A stretch of 31,208 nt of DNA from a virus (taxonomy: Duplodnaviria > Caudoviricetes): the IMG/VR virus record IMGVR_UViG_3300030433_001893, positions 1 through 31,208 of that record; one strand, 5' to 3'. Made by a program: the position numbers and the translations under genes. Shown piece by piece: positions 4,867-30,495 of the stretch. Under the pieces are notes generated by a model. The model was not told the origin of the DNA. It did no database searches and saw nothing but the letters and a program-made list of their open reading frames with translations. Positions within the stretch are counted from its first letter, which is position 1; each line of letters starts with the position of its first letter.

Positions 4867-5882
4867 TGGCTTATACCGCTTGGGCTGCTAGCACCGCGTT
4901 TGCTGTTGGAGACGTTCGACGTGCTACTGCGTCTCAAAACAACGGCGTAGTTTTTGAGTGCATTGAAGCTGGAACATCAGGCGGCACAGAGCCTGTTTGG
5001 CCTACAAGTCTTTTCAATGTAGACAGCACTGTTAACACAGCTGATGCAGATGCGGTCGCTGGCAACTGTTTGCTTGTTTTTAACGAGCAATGCGTCACAG
5101 CAGGTGCCGTTGTTGATGGAACGGTTACATGGAAAGCAATCAGTTCGATCTATGCAGACCTTTCAGCAATTTCACCAAGCGCGATTATTGAGCTATTTGA
5201 ACTGCATTACGACAGTACCTTGCATGGCAGTAGCGATGTCTTGCGGTGGCATGCAGGAGCAAATGATGCGATAACTGGCAACATCACTTGGAATGGGAAT
5301 GATTACGCTCGTCTTCCTGTTAAGGCCGAAGGCTTTGAGTACAAAAACTCTGGGTCGTTACCACGCCCAACGCTGTCTGTAGCAAATTTAAATTCCGCAA
5401 TAACTGCGTTATTGATTGGAGTCAACGCGATCACTCCAGGTAATGATTTGATTGGAGCAAAGGTCAAGCGCATCAGAACCTTGAAGAAGTTTCTCGATGG
5501 TGAATCTGGAGCCGACCCTTACGCAACTTTCCCTGTTGAGGAATGGTTCGTCGACCGTAAAGCCTCAGAATCACGCGATGTTGTCACTTTTGAGCTTGCC
5601 AGCAAGTTTGACCTGTCGAACAAACAGTTGCCAAACCGGCAGGTAGTGGCCAACATTTGCCAGTGGGTCTATAAGTCCTCAGAATGCGGCTACGTTCCAG
5701 GATCTGAACCTGGAAAAGTAGTTGATGGCGTTACATATTATCGTTTTGATAAAAATGATGAGCCAGAAACTCTTGATGCAAATGATGTTTGCGGCAAGCG
5801 TCTTTCTAGCTGTAAATGTCGCTTTGGTGACAATAATGAACTACCGTTTGGGTCGTTCCCCGGCGCCGGACTGCTGAGATGA
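4866..5882 (+). CDS. Minor tail protein, lambda gpL-like, with N-terminal extension
   Basis: IELFEL, ITWNGNDY..LPVKAEGFE, LPRPTLSVAN, KRIRTLKKFLD, VTFELASKFD; C-terminal Cys set CQWVYKSSEC...DVCGKRLSSCKCRF...FGSFPG as in the gpL Fe-S motif. Confidence 0.92.
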   Translation: MAYTAWAASTAFAVGDVRRATASQNNGVVFECIEAGTSGGTEPVWPTSLFNVDSTVNTADADAVAGNCLLVFNEQCVTAGAVVDGTVTWKAISSIYADLSAISPSAIIELFELHYDSTLHGSSDVLRWHAGANDAITGNITWNGNDYARLPVKAEGFEYKNSGSLPRPTLSVANLNSAITALLIGVNAITPGNDLIGAKVKRIRTLKKFLDGESGADPYATFPVEEWFVDRKASESRDVVTFELASKFDLSNKQLPNRQVVANICQWVYKSSECGYVPGSEPGKVVDGVTYYRFDKNDEPETLDANDVCGKRLSSCKCRFGDNNELPFGSFPGAGLLR

Positions 5883-6592
5883 CTTTGCCTTCTTCCATCA
5901 CCAGTCAGGTCTTGGCACATGCAAAAGAAGAGAGCCCAAGAGAATGCTGTGGGTTGGTGGCTGTAGTGAAGGGCAAGCGTCGTTATTTCCCTTGCAAAAA
6001 CTTGGCTGACACGCCGGACGAGCATTTTGTGCTCGATCCAGCTGATTACGCAGCTGTGGAGGATAAAGGCGAAATCGTTGCGGTGATCCACAGTCATCCA
6101 ACCACCAACCACAATCCTTCACCAGCTGATCGTGTCGCTTGTGAGCAAAGCGGTTTGCCTTGGCACATTGTCAATCCGAACACTGAGAATTGGGGTTATT
6201 GCGAGCCTGATGGGTTCGAGTTGCCATATGTAGGACGTGAGTTTTCGCATGGTGTGGTGGACTGCTACAGCCTTTGCCGCGATTGGTATAAGCGGGAGTT
6301 TGGGCTTGAACTGCGGAACTATCCACGCCGGGACAAGTGGTGGGACCACGGCGAAAACCTCTACCTAGAGAACTTTCAAAAGGAAGGGTTTAGAAAGATT
6401 CCAATTACTGAACTGAAGCGTGGCGATGCGTTGCTAATGCAGTTGGTGTCTCCCGTCCCAAACCATGCAGCGATCTACCTGGGCGATCAGCAGGTTTTGC
6501 ATCATGTGCAGGGCCGGCTGTCTAGCAGGGACGTTTACGGCGGGTATTATTTGAAGAACACCGCCTGCGCCTTGAGGCATGAAAGTCGTTAA
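5879..6592 (+). CDS. Tail assembly protein, lambda gpK-like (JAB/MPN + NlpC/P60)
   Basis: ESPRECCG and HSHP...SPADR (JAB); GVVDCYSL...NHAAIYLG...LHH (NlpC/P60). Confidence 0.93.
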   Translation: MTLPSSITSQVLAHAKEESPRECCGLVAVVKGKRRYFPCKNLADTPDEHFVLDPADYAAVEDKGEIVAVIHSHPTTNHNPSPADRVACEQSGLPWHIVNPNTENWGYCEPDGFELPYVGREFSHGVVDCYSLCRDWYKREFGLELRNYPRRDKWWDHGENLYLENFQKEGFRKIPITELKRGDALLMQLVSPVPNHAAIYLGDQQVLHHVQGRLSSRDVYGGYYLKNTACALRHESR

Positions 6593-7226
6593 GGTCTACG
6601 GGGCACTGCGCGAGCTGCTGGGAGCCAGTCGCTTTGAGTTCGTAGCTGATACACCTGCTCAGGCGATGCGTGCCTTGCTAGTCAACTTTCCGCAGCTTGA
6701 GCAATGGTTGATTGATAGCGAGAAGAATGGAGTTGCTTATCGAGTAAGCCTCGGCAAGCAAAAAATATACAGCGAGGATGTTTCCGGAATGTTCACGCCA
6801 TGGAGTGAGCAAGATGTTTTTGCAATTACGCCTGTTTTGACTGGTGCTGGTAATGGTGGCGTTGGGACATTTATTCTTGGCGCTGTCTTGGTCGGTGTTG
6901 CGATTTTCAATCCTTTCGTGGGCTTCTCGCTTGCTAAAGGTGGTTTCGCTGTGATGGGCAGTGCTGCAGTGGCTGCTGGTGGCGCTGGATTAGTGGCGGC
7001 AGCAGGAACATTAGGCATTGGCTTGATGTTGGCCGGTGTAGCTCAAATGCTTTCTCCTGTGCCAAAACCGCCTGGACCTGCTGAAGCACCGACACAGTTG
7101 GAATCAAACAGCTTTAGCGGCGTTGCGAATACTGTTCGTCAGGGCGTGCCCGTGCCAATAGCCTATGGGCGTGTGTTTGTTGGATCAGCGGTTATTTCTG
7201 CTGGCCTTGACGTTGATCAGGTTTGA
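6579..7226 (+). CDS. Tail assembly protein, lambda gpI-like
   Basis: VKVYGALRELLG...AMRAL beta-grasp-like N-terminus ending PVLTGAG, Gly/Ala hydrophobic middle, C-terminal SFSG..NT..QGVPVPIAYGRVFVGSAVISAG. Confidence 0.92.
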   Translation: MKVVKVYGALRELLGASRFEFVADTPAQAMRALLVNFPQLEQWLIDSEKNGVAYRVSLGKQKIYSEDVSGMFTPWSEQDVFAITPVLTGAGNGGVGTFILGAVLVGVAIFNPFVGFSLAKGGFAVMGSAAVAAGGAGLVAAAGTLGIGLMLAGVAQMLSPVPKPPGPAEAPTQLESNSFSGVANTVRQGVPVPIAYGRVFVGSAVISAGLDVDQV

Positions 7227-7228
7227 AC

Positions 7229-10200
7229 ATGACTGAAGCAAAGTACATTTCAGGCGCTGGTGGTGGTGGCTGCTTCACAGCCGATACGCTTGTGTCAACT
7301 CCTGACGGGCAGGTTCGGATTGACCAGCTCAAAGAAGGCAGTGAAGTAATCAGTTTTGATGACAAGGGCAATACACATGTTGCAAAGGTACTAAAAGTTC
7401 ATGTTCACGAAAAAGAGCAAGTTTATCGGTATGGCTTTTGGGGAAACGAGTATGTAGACGCAACACCAAATCATTGGGTCTTGAACCAATACAACGCATT
7501 CGTTGCGATTGGGAGCCTTGGTTTTGATGACTGCTTGATTGATGTCATGGGGCATCTTAGGCCGATGACGAGCCGAAAGGATTTGGGCACAGCGACTGTC
7601 TACAACTTGACGGTAGAACGGCAGCATACGTTTATCGCAAATAACATTCGCGTTCACAATGCAGGCCTAGGCCAAAGAATTGCAGGTGCTGGTGGTGGCC
7701 GCAAAAGTGGCGGTGGTGGCCACACTCCAACTGAAGCTGATGATTCACTGCAGTCAAAGCAGTTTGCAAACGTTCTTGACTTAATCAGTGAGGGCGAAAT
7801 TCAAGGCTTAGATGACGGCAATAAAAGTATCTTTTTTGACGGCACTCCTTTGCAAGCACCAGACGACACATACAATTTTTCTGACTATACAGTCAGCACT
7901 CGTAATGGCACGCAAGGACAGACCTATATTCCCGGCGTTTTTAGCAATGTTGAGTCTGAGACACAAGTTGGTGTTGAGGTTACTAAAGCCGCGCCAGTAG
8001 TTAGGCAGATTACGGATGACGATGTTGACCGTGTTCGAGTAACAATCGAGATCCCTTCGCTAAGGAAAATAGAAGATGATGGCGACATTATTGGCACGAG
8101 TGTAAGTATTAGCATTCAGGTTCAATACAACGGCGGCGGCTACAACACGGTTAAGACTGATAAGATTAAAGGCAAAAGCAATGGCCGCTATCAACGAGAT
8201 TACTTGATAACTCTTAGCGGCGCGTTCCCTGTAGACATCAAGGTTGTAAGAAATACTGCCGACAACAGCTCATCAACTCTTGCCAATACGACAAATTGGT
8301 CGAGCTTTACTTCAATTATTGACGCCAAGCTTGCCTATCCAAACAGCGCTCTTGTTGGCTTACGTTTTGGGTCCAAGCAGTTCAATCGTATTCCTCAGCG
8401 CAAATATTTAATTCGTGGAATAAAGATAGGTGTTCCGACTAATGCAAAAATTGACACAAGCGCGACTGAAAGGCTTGTTGTATCAACTGGTTCTACCGAA
8501 TCAATTACAGGCGGAATACCTGGAAGAATTACATATACTGGTGTTTGGAATGGTGAATTAAGCACCGATCCAGGGGCCTCAGGTGGCGCGGTTTGGACAA
8601 ACGATCCGGCTTGGTGCTTATGGGATTTGCTTACAAACGATAGGTACGGAGCTGGTGTTCCTGAATCCTCGCTTGATCGCTATGACTTTTTTGCAACCAG
8701 CCAGTATTGCAACACCCTTGTTGATGATGGAAAAGGTGGACAAGAGCCACGTTTTAGCTGCAATCTGCTAATCAACCAGCGCAAAGAGGTTTACAACGTC
8801 ATCCAAGAGATGACCAGCATTTTTAGAGGCATTTCTTTTTATGGCGCAGGCTCATTGGTGTTGTTGCAGGACAAGCCTTCTGACGCTCAATACACTCTTG
8901 GCCCAGCCAACGTTGTTGATGGCGCTTTTTCGTATTCTGGATCGTCAGTCCGAAGCCGTCACACTTGTGCAACTGTTGCGTACCAGGATTACGACGAACT
9001 GGGTGAGGTTTCGTTTGAGTACGTTGAAGATGCTGACGCTGTTGCCAAGTATGGCGTAAACAATAAGGACATTAAAGCGGTCGGCTGTTATTCGCAGGGT
9101 CAAGCCAACAGGCTGGGAAAATGGACACTGCTTAGCGAGCAAGACCTCTACGAGACGTGCAACTTCGCCATCGGCATTGACTCAGGCATTGTCGTTAGGC
9201 CTGGCATGGTGGTGGACATTGCTGATCCTTTGCGCGGTGGGACGCGAAGGAATGGACGTGTTTCTTCTGCAACTACGACTCAAATAACCCTTGATAGCGA
9301 CACTGATCTATTAGTTGACACAAGCGAAGACCCGAAACTGTCAATTGTTTTGCCGAACGGTTTAGTTGAAACAAGAAACATTGGTTCAATTAGCGGCAAA
9401 GTGGTTACTGTTCCTGTCGCATTTAGTCAGGCACCAGCGGCCAATGCGCCTTGGCTAATTCAAACAGACGATATTCAATCTCAGCAGTTTCGTGTAGTTA
9501 GCGTTGCAGAAGAAGGTGACGGAGTTTTTGGAGTAGCTGCAATTAAATACAACGAAAGCATTTACAACGCAGTAGAGGAGGACCTCAAATTAACTCAGCG
9601 CGACATTAGCAATCTCACTGAGCCACCATCAGCGGTAAGCGACTTGTCGGCCACCGAATTTTTATATGAAGAAGGTGGAACTGTCAAAACAGCTGTTGAC
9701 CTCAACTGGGAAAGCCCTGTTAATCAAGTTACACATGCGGACGACAATGTAATAACCGTTCAAGATCCTAACGTTAATGATTTTGTTGTTCGTTACCGTT
9801 TGGATAACAGTAATTTTGAAACAATCACCACTGAAGCTTCATCAACACAAATCAAAGGGTTGAAAGCAGGAAACCTGGAGGTTCAGGTTAGTGCTCGCAA
9901 TTTTAATAACAAATCTGGCCCAATCACTAAAGAGTTTTTTGAACTCGCAGGAAAAACAGCAATCCCAGGCAACGTACAAAATCTGACGTTAGAACCTTTG
10001 AATTACAACAGCGCACGTTTGCGTTGGGATGAGACTGTCGACCTTGACGTAAAAGTCAGTGGCAAGGTTCATATCCGACACAGCAATCTGACTGACGGCA
10101 GTGCGACGTGGTCAAACAGCACTGACCTCATTGCCGCGATTGCGGGCAGTTCAACTGAAGCGACTGTGCCTCTCTTAGAAGGGGAGTACCTAGTCAAGTT

Positions 10201-11029
10201 TGAAGACGACGGTCTGCGTAAGAGCGCAACAGAAACCACCGTCATTGTTGACCAACCAGTTTCGCAGACGTTCTTTGGTGTCAAAAACCAGCGTGAGGAT
10301 CAGATCACGCCAACACCGTTTACTGGCAGTAAGACTGACACAACCTACGACACAACCTATGACGCTTTGATTCTCGATAGTGATGGCGTCTCAGCAGGCA
10401 CTGGTGAATACGCTTTTGCCGACACGCTGGACCTCGAGGCTGTTTACAGCTTGGACCTGGAGCGTCGGCTTGTTGCTCGCGGCATTTACCCAAGTGACCT
10501 TTGGGACAGCCGAACAGACAACATTGACACTTGGCAGGACATTGATGGCGGTGTTGTCGATCAGGTCAATGCTGAGCTTTATGTGCGAAAGACCAACGAC
10601 GATCCGTCTGGCTCGCCGACTTACAGCGCATGGCAGCCGTTGGCAAATGGTGTTTTGAAAGCCCGTGCGTTTCAGTTCAAAACCGTTCTGACCACGACCA
10701 ACGCAGCTCAAAACATCCTTGTGGACGAGCTGGGCTACAAAGCACAACTGCAGCAGCGCACTGAGCAAAGCACCGCAACGATTGCTAGCGGCACATCAGC
10801 CAAAGCTGTCACGTTTACCAATGCGTTTTTTACAGGCACTAGCAGCCTTGGAGGAGCAGACAGCGCGCTGCCCACCATCGGCATCACACCGTTAAACATG
10901 GCCACTGGAGACTTCTTTGAGCTGTCCAGCATCTCAAGAACTGGCTTCACTGTTACGTTCAAAAACAGCAGCGGCACAATCGTTGACCGGAACTTCAACT
11001 ACATGGCAACAGGCTTTGGCAAGTCGTAA
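7229..11029 (+). CDS. Central tail fibre / tip attachment protein, lambda gpJ-like, with N-terminal Hint domain
   Basis: DLISEGEIQGL, YPNSALVG, WTNDPAWCLWDLLTNDRYG, YCNTLVDDGKGGQEPRFSCN, GCYSQGQANRLGKW and FN3-like repeats; ATG 7229 preferred over TTG 7223. Confidence 0.95.
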   Translation: MTEAKYISGAGGGGCFTADTLVSTPDGQVRIDQLKEGSEVISFDDKGNTHVAKVLKVHVHEKEQVYRYGFWGNEYVDATPNHWVLNQYNAFVAIGSLGFDDCLIDVMGHLRPMTSRKDLGTATVYNLTVERQHTFIANNIRVHNAGLGQRIAGAGGGRKSGGGGHTPTEADDSLQSKQFANVLDLISEGEIQGLDDGNKSIFFDGTPLQAPDDTYNFSDYTVSTRNGTQGQTYIPGVFSNVESETQVGVEVTKAAPVVRQITDDDVDRVRVTIEIPSLRKIEDDGDIIGTSVSISIQVQYNGGGYNTVKTDKIKGKSNGRYQRDYLITLSGAFPVDIKVVRNTADNSSSTLANTTNWSSFTSIIDAKLAYPNSALVGLRFGSKQFNRIPQRKYLIRGIKIGVPTNAKIDTSATERLVVSTGSTESITGGIPGRITYTGVWNGELSTDPGASGGAVWTNDPAWCLWDLLTNDRYGAGVPESSLDRYDFFATSQYCNTLVDDGKGGQEPRFSCNLLINQRKEVYNVIQEMTSIFRGISFYGAGSLVLLQDKPSDAQYTLGPANVVDGAFSYSGSSVRSRHTCATVAYQDYDELGEVSFEYVEDADAVAKYGVNNKDIKAVGCYSQGQANRLGKWTLLSEQDLYETCNFAIGIDSGIVVRPGMVVDIADPLRGGTRRNGRVSSATTTQITLDSDTDLLVDTSEDPKLSIVLPNGLVETRNIGSISGKVVTVPVAFSQAPAANAPWLIQTDDIQSQQFRVVSVAEEGDGVFGVAAIKYNESIYNAVEEDLKLTQRDISNLTEPPSAVSDLSATEFLYEEGGTVKTAVDLNWESPVNQVTHADDNVITVQDPNVNDFVVRYRLDNSNFETITTEASSTQIKGLKAGNLEVQVSARNFNNKSGPITKEFFELAGKTAIPGNVQNLTLEPLNYNSARLRWDETVDLDVKVSGKVHIRHSNLTDGSATWSNSTDLIAAIAGSSTEATVPLLEGEYLVKFEDDGLRKSATETTVIVDQPVSQTFFGVKNQREDQITPTPFTGSKTDTTYDTTYDALILDSDGVSAGTGEYAFADTLDLEAVYSLDLERRLVARGIYPSDLWDSRTDNIDTWQDIDGGVVDQVNAELYVRKTNDDPSGSPTYSAWQPLANGVLKARAFQFKTVLTTTNAAQNILVDELGYKAQLQQRTEQSTATIASGTSAKAVTFTNAFFTGTSSLGGADSALPTIGITPLNMATGDFFELSSISRTGFTVTFKNSSGTIVDRNFNYMATGFGKS
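7271..7660 (+). other. Hint domain (mini-intein / bacterial intein-like), 130 aa, no endonuclease
   Basis: Block A CFTADTLV, block B ATPNHW (TxxH), block F VYNLTV..QHTFIAN, terminal VHN; the following residue is Ala. Confidence 0.9.
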
Positions 11030-24021: not shown

Positions 24022-24195
24022 ATGCTTTTAGTACTCAAGCCCTTGGTGATGACCATGTGGCGCTCAAGGGCATTCAAAGACTTGATTGTCGCGATGCTTG
24101 AAAAGATCGTGACTCGTACTGACAACGATCTGGATGATCTTGCTGTAAAGCATTTGAAGGAGCTGCTTCTGCCTGACACTCGTGTGGAGAAGTGA
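24022..24195 (+). CDS. Small hypothetical protein (57 aa, TDNDLDD motif), not in ORF track
   Basis: Hand translation MLLVLKPLVMTMWRSRAFKDLIVAMLEKIVTRTDNDLDDLAVKHLKELLLPDTRVEK; lysis-region position. Confidence 0.7.
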   Translation: MLLVLKPLVMTMWRSRAFKDLIVAMLEKIVTRTDNDLDDLAVKHLKELLLPDTRVEK

Positions 24196-24338
24196 AGCTA
24201 TCCGCGTTTTCGGCGACTGGCTGGTTTCTTGCAGGCAGCGCGGTCACGTTTTTGCTTTGCAGTTCAATGCTGGTTTTCATCGCCGGATACAGCACTGGCG
24301 TAAACAGTTGCGACCAAGCAACATCAGACCAGCTTTAG
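24192..24338 (+). CDS. Small single-TM protein (48 aa, holin candidate), not in ORF track
   Basis: GTGA overlap; MKLSAFSATGWFLAGSAVTFLLCSSMLVFIAGYSTGVNSCDQATSDQL; immediately precedes the peptidase. Confidence 0.5.
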   Translation: MKLSAFSATGWFLAGSAVTFLLCSSMLVFIAGYSTGVNSCDQATSDQL

Positions 24339-24349
24339 CTGTAACTGGT

Positions 24350-25054
24350 GTGTTGAGTCTGCTGCCGTTTTTCCAGTTTTTCCGTGGTACGCCCCACCAG
24401 TTGGCTGCAATTAAACAGCTTGAAGAGTCGCTGCCAGCGCGATTACTGGAGGAAAACGAGGCTGATTGGTTTCAAGCGTGGAAGGAAAGTGGATATGACC
24501 AGCAGATCTATATGCCCTACTTCAGGCAGTGGGACAACAAGACTGGCACGGGTTATAGGGAGTGCTTCTCGTCGGCGTCAGCAATGGTGGCAGCGTTTTA
24601 TCGGCGCGTTAAGACGGATGATGAGTACAACGACATCCGCGCCAAGTACGGCGACAGCACGTCGGTAGACGCTCAGTTGGCAGCATTGCGCAGTCTCGGC
24701 TTGAGAGCTGAGTTCCGCAAAGACGGTGACGCTGACTTAGTAGAGCGTGAGCTTGAAGCAGGCAGGCCAGTCATGGTCGGCTGGCTTCATGCAGGCAACA
24801 TGCTCTTAGGAGAACCCCCTATGTGCAATGCATTGGGTTGCGGGCACTGGAGCGTTATCAGCGGCTATGCCGGCAAAAACAGCAGCGATCCTGAGTGGAT
24901 CATGCAAGACCCTCGTGGTTACCCCGAAATGGAGAAGGGTGGCCACTCAAACCCGCACCTCGGACGCAATGTCCGTGTAAGACAAGCGGCGTTCTATCAA
25001 CGCTGGCAAGCTGAAGGGCCAAAAACCGGCTGGGTGATCTTGGTCAGCGACTGA
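24350..25054 (+). CDS. C39-like cysteine peptidase, probable endolysin
   Basis: PYFRQWDN..G.GYRECFSSASAM (Gln/Cys), GHWSVISGY (His), IMQDP (Asp); GTG 24350 preferred over 24182 because two small ORFs occupy the upstream part. Confidence 0.8.
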   Translation: MLSLLPFFQFFRGTPHQLAAIKQLEESLPARLLEENEADWFQAWKESGYDQQIYMPYFRQWDNKTGTGYRECFSSASAMVAAFYRRVKTDDEYNDIRAKYGDSTSVDAQLAALRSLGLRAEFRKDGDADLVERELEAGRPVMVGWLHAGNMLLGEPPMCNALGCGHWSVISGYAGKNSSDPEWIMQDPRGYPEMEKGGHSNPHLGRNVRVRQAAFYQRWQAEGPKTGWVILVSD

Positions 25055-28496: not shown

Positions 28497-28688
28497 TTAC
28501 TCCGGGGTGACGGTGTTTGCTTCTTCAAACGCTTCCACGTCTGAGAGCTTGTAGCGGATCTGGTTGTTGATCTTGACGAACTTCGGGCCAGTGCCTTTTG
28601 TCCGCCACCTAATCAACGTTTGACGATGACATTGCCAGCGTTCAGCCAGCTGCTCGTCAGTCAAAAAAATCGTCGGGTTCAATGACAT
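28497..28688 (-). CDS. Excisionase/AlpA-like winged HTH protein
   Basis: FLTDEQLAERWQCHRQTLIRWRTKGTGPKFVKINNQIRYKLSDVEAFE; ATG 28688 preferred. Confidence 0.85.
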   Translation of the reverse strand: MSLNPTIFLTDEQLAERWQCHRQTLIRWRTKGTGPKFVKINNQIRYKLSDVEAFEEANTVTPE

Positions 28689-29346
28689 CGGAAACAGGCT
28701 CGGGTTCAGGGACTGGCACAGGGTCAGCTTTAGGGGCCAACAGGTTCGAGACCTTGTCAAGCTTGTCCTCAGCAGTACTGGGTGCAACCTTGATGTCAGC
28801 CTCAATCACTTCAGCCTCGTCGACACTGCTCATGCCATTGAGAATGTCAGGAATGTAGTCCCTGCCAAAAAAGCTCACGGCACGAGCACGAAGCATCCGT
28901 TGAGGCATTGAACGCCACTTGGTGTTGCGAGTCCAACCCTCAGCCTTTGCCATCTCCAAGGTGATCTTTACGCCACGCACCTCTTCTCCAGAGTCGGCAC
29001 GCTTACAAACCACCTGACAGGAATCTTCTGTCTCGGCATAACCGAAGTCAGTAAACCTGCCGCAGCCCTGGATGGCACCACTGATGAACTCAGACTTCCA
29101 GCTGGGCCTGCCATTGATCACATTGATCGACTGGCAAACATAGGTGGGGTCCATGCCCATCCTGCGAGCGACACCAACAGCGACAACGCAGTTAGAAACT
29201 CCGTTATTGCCCTGGAACTCTCGTGGGACAAACGAGGATGCGGCCAGCATCTTGGCTTGACGCTGTGCAAACTCAAAGCTTGCCTCGCTGACATAAATAG
29301 ACCCAGAGACCTGCGGAACCTGGGTTATGGCGGTTGACTCACTCAT
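28657..29346 (-). CDS. recT: RecT-like single-strand annealing recombinase
   Basis: AKMLAASSFVP..FQG...NC..A...A.RMGMDP..V.QSI.VINGRPSW; MAKAEGW...KW.SMP..ML..RA.SFFGR...PD.L.G; near the RecE-like nuclease. Confidence 0.75.
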   Translation of the reverse strand: MSESTAITQVPQVSGSIYVSEASFEFAQRQAKMLAASSFVPREFQGNNGVSNCVVAVGVARRMGMDPTYVCQSINVINGRPSWKSEFISGAIQGCGRFTDFGYAETEDSCQVVCKRADSGEEVRGVKITLEMAKAEGWTRNTKWRSMPQRMLRARAVSFFGRDYIPDILNGMSSVDEAEVIEADIKVAPSTAEDKLDKVSNLLAPKADPVPVPEPEPVSDVIEPDDFFD

Positions 29347-29587
29347 TGATTACCTCAGGGGCAGGGAGGGCTTGTTCCATACGCAGGCGCAAATCGCCGA
29401 GCTTTTGATTGCTGGGCTCACGCTGACCAGAAAGAATCTGCACAGTGTTCTTGAGCAGCCAGGCAGAGAATGCTTGATCAGTCTCAAAACCAGAGTCGAC
29501 ACGCAACTCTTTGATCTTTTCGCCGTACCAAGGTGACAGAGTCAGCTCGATGCGGGTCTTGTTCTTAGCGCCAGGTTGACGGGCCAT
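29339..29587 (-). CDS. Putative ribbon-helix-helix-like regulator
   Basis: ATG 29587; KTRIELTLSP followed by two helices. Confidence 0.5.
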   Translation of the reverse strand: MARQPGAKNKTRIELTLSPWYGEKIKELRVDSGFETDQAFSAWLLKNTVQILSGQREPSNQKLGDLRLRMEQALPAPEVINE

Positions 29588-29639
29588 AACAAATAAGTAG
29601 ATGGAAAACAGGGACTTACACCTTGTGGATGCCCAGAAA

Positions 29640-30488
29640 TCAGTAAGAAACAGTGATGGGCTCAAATTCAGGCTGACCGCCGTCTTCTTTGGGCAGCATC
29701 CACTTGGGCAAGGAGATCTCCTCTACCCGCTCGGAGTAGCCAGGAAATTTGTCGTCGGCGATCCACTGCGCGATGTTGTTCAGGTCTTCGCGAGCTTGCT
29801 GCTTGCCAAGATCAATCATTGCCTGGTCGGCCATGTACACAGCAGTCGAAAAAGGGCGAGTTTTTTCAACAGCTACGAACAAAAATGCCTGTGGCCGCGT
29901 GCCAGTCGTGCCCTCGATCACGTCGAGGTAATGCGACGCCTGCACGAAGTAGCGATATCGAGCAACGCTGGATTGAAAACCCTTCGGTGACGCATCAACA
30001 GTGGACTTGAGATCGATAATCAGCGACAAATCGTCCATCAAGAAGTCGGGCCTTGCTTTGAGTTCAAGACCGGTCTCAGGATCAGTGCAAAAGAAGCTTT
30101 GCTCAGACTTGCCCTTCAGCTCGCCATTGACGAGACTCGCAGTAAATGGATGCTCACGAAGAGACAGCATCATCTGATCGAGCACATAAGCATCAGACGG
30201 GCTGACGATGATCTTGCCCTTGTGCTCAGCAACAAAAGCTTTGCCCTCCTTTGTGGTCTTCTTCATGCCCTCAGGCATGCGAACAGCAATGTCGTCGACG
30301 TTCTCGCCAGGAAGGCCAGATGCGTGAAACAACGTGCCGAAATCAAACGCAGGAGTCGACTCGCGTGAGGGGCCGTACACCACGTCATAGAAGTGCCGAC
30401 CGCTCTTGCGGGCAGCGTCGAGCTTGCTCTTGGAGATCGCCTTGTGGCCGTGATACTCCGCGTTGCTCATCTCAACTCCAAAACCCAT
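29640..30488 (-). CDS. recE: RecE-like exonuclease VIII (PD-(D/E)XK, DUF3799)
   Basis: MSNAEYH..AISKSKL, FGTLFH, EQSFF..D.ETG..LKARPD, IIDLKST, Y.VQA.HY, FLFVAVEK..PF. Confidence 0.88.
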   Translation of the reverse strand: MGFGVEMSNAEYHGHKAISKSKLDAARKSGRHFYDVVYGPSRESTPAFDFGTLFHASGLPGENVDDIAVRMPEGMKKTTKEGKAFVAEHKGKIIVSPSDAYVLDQMMLSLREHPFTASLVNGELKGKSEQSFFCTDPETGLELKARPDFLMDDLSLIIDLKSTVDASPKGFQSSVARYRYFVQASHYLDVIEGTTGTRPQAFLFVAVEKTRPFSTAVYMADQAMIDLGKQQAREDLNNIAQWIADDKFPGYSERVEEISLPKWMLPKEDGGQPEFEPITVSY

Positions 30489-30495
30489 AAGCACC

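Follow-up and report, generated by a model that had tools for sequence, protein, structure and literature searches.

Canonical class 1 intein splicing calls for Cys, Ser or Thr at the +1 position. Mini-inteins of this class, such as gp41-1 and Ssp DnaB, have the Hint fold with blocks A, B, F and G, and their precise removal restores the empty allele. A-type BILs, including that of Clostridium thermocellum (PDB 2LWY; Pfam PT-HINT), are Hint domains of ~130-150 aa without an endonuclease that occupy variable regions of non-conserved bacterial proteins and carry Cys1 and the block B Thr/His. According to the accessible portions of the relevant reports, BILs without a +1 nucleophile give mainly cleaved products (PMC7664689; PMC7765530), and A-type BILs sometimes splice (PMC5874633). 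At the BUBL locus of Tetrahymena thermophila, Hint domains have ubiquitin-like flanks, and BIL2 (PDB 6Y75, 6TMM) has been described, in the available part of PMC8616854, as conjugating a Ubl to lysines without E1 or E2. Ubiquitin-like sequences also occur in phage tails: the N-terminal domain of gpI has been identified as ubiquitin-like and its cleavage by the gpK JAB domain predicted (Iyer et al. 2006, PMC1779556, in its accessible part), and a conference summary (PMC12908700) states that gpK cleaves the gpI Ubl of lambda, ordering assembly. In the available portions of these lambda accounts, gpI alone is described as a gpK substrate, and neither a motif-bearing gpJ leader nor a Hint on gpJ is mentioned.

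The locus considered here is a Hint domain at the start of the central tail fibre gene, gpJ, of an uncultured phage. It shares with A-type BILs a short Hint, Cys1, a His-Asn end and the lack of a +1 nucleophile, and 2LWY is its best PDB sequence match (E 1.6e-9; TM 0.87 of target). Its linker is variable and disordered, as theirs would be, but belongs to a conserved phage gene. Unlike A-type BILs, it resides in a phage structural protein, follows a fixed motif and comes with a second copy of the host leader; close alleles differ in whether they contain it, and some of its motifs (NHWVLNQ, WGG) are specific to its clade. The top Foldseek match is BUBL BIL2, although the scores of BIL2, DnaB mini-inteins and 2LWY are similar. 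Like BIL2, the gpJ Hint follows a Gly-ended, ubiquitin-tail-like sequence; unlike BIL2, it has a mere 14-aa peptide as its N-flank, with a Ubl N-flank found only in the gpI of three other phages, and its +1 residue is Ala rather than Lys; conjugation is a candidate activity. With class 1 mini-inteins it has in common the fold, blocks A, B, F and G, a patchy allelic distribution and purifying selection, but it lacks Cys, Ser or Thr at +1 (except in one Thr clade), shows Asn rather than Asp at the fourth position of block F, is inserted in a disordered linker with a duplicated flank and no endonuclease, and its removal does not precisely restore the empty allele. Finally, the operon is that of the lambda gpK/gpI pair, with the same motif at the end of the gpI Ubl, whereas lambda gpJ has no motif leader.

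Anatomy of the gpJ start

The window, that is, the whole stretch of DNA that was analyzed (31,208 bases; IMGVR_UViG_3300030433_001893), is a linear virus fragment that is 95% complete and is represented in marine metagenome runs, among which no RNA run was listed. It contains a lambda-type tail operon with the tape measure (H), gpM, gpL, gpK, gpI and gpJ. The features of concern are as follows.

5879..6592, plus strand: gpK, with a JAB domain (intact HSH..S..D) plus an NlpC/P60 protease
6579..7226, plus strand: gpI tail assembly protein, its N-terminal domain ubiquitin-like according to the accessible part of PMC1779556
6831-6851, plus strand: gpI motif PVLTGAG, at the end of the gpI N-terminal domain
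7229-11029, plus strand: gpJ open reading frame, ATG at 7229, 1266 aa
7229..7270, plus strand: gpJ leader (N-extein) MTEAKYISGAGGGG, 14 aa, carrying the first IxG[AS]G motif
7247..7266, plus strand: DNA direct repeat, copy 1, 18/20 identical to copy 2
7271..7660, plus strand: Hint domain, exactly 130 aa, A-type BIL-like
7661..7699, plus strand: cassette spacer AGLGQR and second motif IAGAGGG, AGLGQRIAGAGGG, the predicted gpJ N-terminus after C-terminal cleavage
7679..7698, plus strand: DNA direct repeat, copy 2, in frame and 432 bp downstream of copy 1
7700..11029, plus strand: body of the central tail fibre gpJ (phrog_31, E 1e-230)

The Hint displays C1, H46, T65, H68, N112, H119, H129 and N130, with TPNH at 65-68 and a VHN end, and is followed by Ala at +1 (codon 7661-7663). 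Beyond the second motif comes RKSGGGGHTPTEADDSLQS, an ordinary gpJ start, and the TipJ match begins at residue 159. The isolated Hint scores above the curated cut-offs of TIGR01445 (28.1 versus 24.5 bits) and TIGR01443 (23 versus 15.6); for Pfam PT-HINT it reaches 20.6 against a cut-off of 27.7, which relatives such as P0250 exceed. AlphaFold2 models the Hint core at a pLDDT of about 90 between disordered flanks, and Foldseek matches the domain to Hint structures with E about 1e-11. The first-pass annotation had described this same succession of leader, 130-aa Hint, Ala and second IxGAGGG, and was accurate in doing so. It was also borne out in noting the absence of a homing endonuclease: a Hint of 130 aa leaves no space for one, and a Pfam scan found no homing-endonuclease family among the 50 window proteins, which likewise disposes of a free-standing enzyme within this linear, 95% complete fragment.

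Elsewhere in the window, RecT-like and PDDEXK exonuclease genes (28657-30494, minus strand) form a candidate recombination system for cassette movement. Two genes hint at a cyanobacterial host: one is cyanophage outer-membrane-protein-like (PF24653; 19737-20099), and the other encodes a papain-like C39/C70 peptidase that matches an endolysin PHROG (24182-25054).

The Hint family and its +1 residue

Relatives of the gpJ Hint have been collected at several distances. A homolog search with gpJ residues 1-190 returned 850 matches from 1547 candidates, some of which may match through the gpJ part alone; the closest 120 of the 850 all share the HN|AG junction (112 by parsing and 8 by reading the raw output). 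When 1.84 billion representatives were searched with a profile, 527 matched at E<=1e-10, and among the 150 matches listed, 70 were gpJ-like; after three partial ones were dropped, 70 complete junctions in 67 proteins were available. Among these listed matches, C1 and HN are found at 70/70 junctions and Gly at -1 in 68/70, while the +1 residue is Gly in 63, Ala in 4, Lys in 2, Gln in one and Cys, Ser or Thr in none. In a third set, comprising 99 distinct locus Hints, +1 is Ala in 77, Gly in 18 and Thr in 4, the last forming a single clade (L135, L137-L139). All four members of this clade retain the duplicated motif, providing a natural control for canonical splicing.

The remaining catalytic positions are equally well preserved. 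Among the matches listed, C1, H68, H129 and N130 are present in 70/70 distant gpJ Hints and T65 in 69/70; H46 (7406-7408) and N112 (7604-7606) are invariant (70/70), the non-catalytic H46, W57 and W69 are conserved, and 68/70 copies have a Hint length of 128-132. By spacing alone, H46 and N112 lie near the zinc ligands H48 and H125 reported for BIL2. The median dN/dS of the Hint is 0.047, calculated from those 341 pairs, out of 3655, whose dS falls in the range 0.1-1.5. Taken together, the invariant catalytic residues, the dN/dS and the Ala or Gly at +1 indicate that the missing nucleophile is the norm of the family and that the Hint, as read from these alignments, is under purifying selection without degeneration. 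The first-pass annotation had seen a Hint of the BIL type that lacks a +1 nucleophile, and the survey of gpJ homologs that it had suggested agrees (0/120 closest, 0/70 distant among the matches listed, and Thr in 4/99), Ala or Gly occurring nearly everywhere; only a strict reading, in which Cys, Ser or Thr never appears, is contradicted by the Thr clade. The +1 survey, the conserved catalysis and the dN/dS rule out a degenerate ordinary intein. Likewise, Cys88 was considered as a class-3-like internal nucleophile and rejected, being invariant in the close clade but Cys in only 18/70 distant Hints among the matches listed.

The close Hint clade alone is matched by 530 viral-contig stretches. 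A search of genome contigs for the Hint locus yielded four loci, every one on MAG contigs. In GenBank phages, no Hint on gpJ was found, though 1760 records hold gpJ, and thus no cultured carrier was found there; the only GenBank matches to the window Hint are three Ruminococcus phage hypothetical proteins, and with P0146 as the query, 80% cover was reached by no record among the matches listed (25 of 1737).

Sister Hints occur in bacterial proteins. For example, P0125, P0180, P0227 and similar proteins combine a hydrophobic N-terminal stretch with 2-5 tandem Hints, K-G(n) linkers and Tim44-like domains, and with Lys at +1 they would be able to form isopeptide bonds in the BUBL manner. In addition, close relatives of the gpJ Hint are found at the C-terminus of unrelated proteins (L278:2375-4435; P0166, P0168, P0173, P0185), followed by a short GGKGK tail; one is on a Flavobacterium MAG contig.

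Presence, absence and mobility of the cassette

The Hint is optional. It is missing from 18/58 loci of the first scan, where the gpJ start reads MTxSKYIAGAGGG..KGG..PTE(A/S)DD, and among the 121 nearest gpJs, ranked by the gpJ body alone, it is present in 17 (about 14%) and missing in 104. On a FastTree phylogeny of 60 dereplicated rows (midpoint root, without support values), presence and absence require 13 changes versus 12.7 in shuffles, a random distribution. In the closest relative, L043, the two flanks align at 89% and 91%, and exactly the cassette is missing. Identity of the Hint is only loosely coupled to that of the gpJ body (rho 0.30), with 61 pairs combining a Hint of at least 90% with a body below 72%, and 135 pairs a Hint below 72% with a body of at least 80%. 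By partial correlation over pairs that are not independent, the leader goes with the body (0.32 versus 0.20) and the spacer with the Hint (0.39 versus 0.10), and the leader motif lies at the same position in 104/104 Hint-less relatives. By these comparisons, the leader belongs to the host gene and not to the cassette, and the mobile unit is the Hint, spacer and motif copy between 18/20 direct repeats, without an endonuclease. Recombination is most simply taken as its putative mover. Tandem double cassettes are found in P0001, P0121, P0126 and P0249. Contigs with and without the cassette share runs X1, which may be where this DNA comes from, X3 and X4, and represent different strains; the contig joints that skip the cassette stem from diverged strains and are no demonstration of pop-out from this genome.

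The patchy presence and the decoupling of Hint and body argue for a mobile cassette without a required role as a gate. The first-pass annotation had favored a domesticated pro-domain that gates tail-tip assembly, a proposal that fails in the face of 104/121 nearest gpJs without a Hint, the closest relative included; as a general role, a required gate is ruled out by these near relatives and by the random distribution on the tree. Its companion remark that the Hint is not obviously selfish holds insofar as no endonuclease was found, but is weakened by the patchiness and by movement between gpJ backgrounds. Removal of the Hint alone would not recreate an empty allele, as about 13 extra residues remain, although it roughly does so in versions without the spare motif. 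The cassette is easily lost and has no endonuclease, yet it is retained in gpJs that share as little as 30-45% identity; neutrality gives no explanation for this persistence, which counts against the self-removal reading set out below.

The duplicated motif, gpK and a proposed self-removal

The [IVL]xG[AS]G motif in both flanks of the Hint also ends the gpI N-terminal domain, a match that had escaped the first-pass annotation, and the gpJ leader carries the motif expected of a gpK substrate, namely a Ubl tail [VIL]xG[AS] followed by G or K. The lambda gpI motif ends at A97, and lambda gpI is resolved from residue 101 (accessible part of PMC11101478). A related Hint sits directly behind PVIEGAGGG in the gpI of three phages (L124-L126), whose gpK JAB is intact; there (L124:8001-9317, and likewise in L125 and L126; P0250), it lies between the gpI ubiquitin-like and structural domains, and L124 has a Hint-less gpJ of unusual length (1779 aa). 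The JAB motif is also intact in 148/150 Hint-bearing loci (redundant loci), and together with L124-L126 this rules out a Hint that replaces gpK. In distant gpJs among the matches listed, the spare motif is present in 49/67 and missing in 18/67, and it is missing in the gpI copies as well. When the residue after G-x is compared between leader and spare copies, the types are G/G in 41, K/K in 6 (7 with P0253, scored by eye) and G/M in one, with no G/K cross. The nine K-type rows need nine changes on the Hint tree, and as they are scattered, the spare copy seems to adapt repeatedly to its host; no A/S covariation was found between the two motif copies.

A similar correspondence is seen between gpI and gpJ: in 55 dereplicated loci, their types are G/G in 27, K/K in 9, K/G in 4 and G/K in none, with 15 unscored, and shared ancestry inflates the association (Fisher p 2.6e-6), as 8/9 K/K rows are GenBank proteobacterial phages. 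A fold modelled from the gpK JAB, zinc and the peptide that follows the Hint scored 0.39 versus 0.02 for the best control, and it weakly backs a reading of the gpJ motif by gpK; the mark for such folds was reached by 116/157 solved and 2/215 mismatched pairs (run agreement at least 73%, partner pLDDT at least 46), with 18/157 solved pairs and both mismatches at 0.60 or under. Cultured proteobacterial siphophages (L190, L194-L200) have an IxG[SRH]K gpJ leader that parallels the GxK of their gpI Ubl tail. Counting against a gpJ-gpK link are the gpJs of lambda and L191, in which the leader motif is missing, the four loci with gpI of type K and gpJ of type G, and the lack of a beta-grasp fold ahead of the gpJ motif. 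On balance, the notion that many siphophages, laboratory T1-like coliphages among them, use the IxG[AS]-G/K leader of gpJ as a second gpK substrate or docking site is a serious candidate, standing a little short of an even chance.

As to the cassette itself, we somewhat favor the reading that this optional, mobile element removes itself by self-cleavage and leaves a gpJ of nearly the Hint-less type; cleavage is the likely chemistry of the Hint as judged from its sequence. Cyclization of Asn130 would free a gpJ that begins with AGLGQR-IAGAGGG, which keeps the register of native MTKSKY-IAGAGGG, and an acyl shift at Cys1 would release the leader. The freed Ala or Gly amine may allow some splicing, which would matter in versions without the spare motif. 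The IxG[AS]-G/K motif would mimic the C-terminal tail of the ubiquitin-like gpI and would likely be recognized or cleaved by the JAB domain of gpK, which is the proposed reason for the matching spare copy in the cassette. Spread and loss would proceed by recombination in the Gly-codon repeats, with no endonuclease. The motif Gly is at position 9 after Asn130 in 99, and at positions 8-10 in 118, of the closest 120 homologs, and at position 9 from Met in 104/104 Hint-less alleles of one close clade; this register fit and the host-matched spare motif make self-removal by cleavage the best reading. Against it, the invariance of C1, T65 and H68 suggests that C-terminal cleavage alone would not suffice unless the N- and C-terminal reactions are coupled, cleavage alone would lose the leader in the 18/67 gpJs (among the matches listed) and the gpI copies without a spare motif, Hint catalysis would be partly redundant if gpK cuts efficiently at the spare motif, and the Thr clade is an exception.

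Several of the same observations can be accommodated by splicing, in which the Hint would be a mini-intein for Gly-rich linkers and the leader would be joined to gpJ by aminolysis through the freed Gly or Ala amine. The N- and C-terminal catalytic sets are both invariant, -1 is Gly in 68/70 and +1 Gly or Ala in 67/70 junctions (among the matches listed), and leader loss would be avoided in the 18/67 listed gpJs and the gpI copies that lack a spare motif. Tandem Hints with Gly/Lys linkers of 2-10 aa, seen in gpJ as well as in bacterial proteins with Tim44 domains, point the same way, as does the ability of A-type BILs to splice (PMC5874633, in its available part); the Thr clade would splice canonically, the duplicated motif being a tolerated by-product. 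However, the characterized BILs yield mostly cleaved products (PMC7664689, available part), and 49/67 gpJs among the matches listed carry a host-type spare motif that efficient splicing would make needless, so that we regard splicing as the main outcome as unlikely. At the other extreme, gpK might remove leader and Hint together at the second motif, rendering the chemistry of the Hint irrelevant. The position of the spare motif downstream of the Hint and the JAB motif intact in 148/150 redundant loci are consistent with such a passive passenger, but invariant catalytic residues, a dN/dS of about 0.05 and the existence of versions without a downstream motif make it very improbable.

The first-pass annotation had also considered thioester activation of the Gly-terminated leader for ligation, and in a further alternative the Hint would be a domesticated ligase of this kind. 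The leader, mimicking a ubiquitin-like C-terminus, would become a thioester and be passed on to a lysine or other amine, the proposed acceptors being a Lys after the gpJ Gly run, gpI, or a host ubiquitin-like defence enzyme. BIL2 of the BUBL locus, the top fold match, conjugates a Ubl to lysines without E1 or E2 (PMC8616854, in part), gpJ is the target of Bil according to the accessible part of bioRxiv 10.1101/2023.09.04.556158, H46, W57 and W69 are conserved though non-catalytic, and about 14% of the nearest gpJs keep the cassette although it is easily lost, as might follow from a conditional benefit in cross-linking, in timing or in countering defence systems that tag gpJ. Yet most close relatives lack the cassette and co-occur with carriers, BIL2, 2LWY and ordinary mini-inteins score almost alike as fold matches, the leader goes with the host gene and not with the cassette, and no acceptor was pinpointed in this analysis; ligation is accordingly a doubtful alternative. 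Its boldest form, an E1/E2-free ligase at a ubiquitin-like tail-tip checkpoint, for which the leader would be a ubiquitin-tail mimic that gpK reads, and its thioester would be conjugated to tail-tip lysines or host Ubl-defence enzymes and would pre-empt gpJ-tagging systems such as Bil, strikes us as quite improbable.

No account of a Hint on gpJ or gpI was found in the literature within reach, which did not extend to subscription papers (the primary BIL reports and the full gpK/gpI work), and the lack of a gpJ Hint in GenBank phages with 1760 gpJ records may explain this gap. Non-canonical Hint elements of this kind form a large family within one structural protein of the virion and spread without an endonuclease. 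That the deubiquitinase-like protease gpK may also cut the gpJ leader or dock on it is a testable, general idea, and natural Hints selected with Gly or Ala at +1 are candidates for cysteine-free tools of protein ligation and cleavage.
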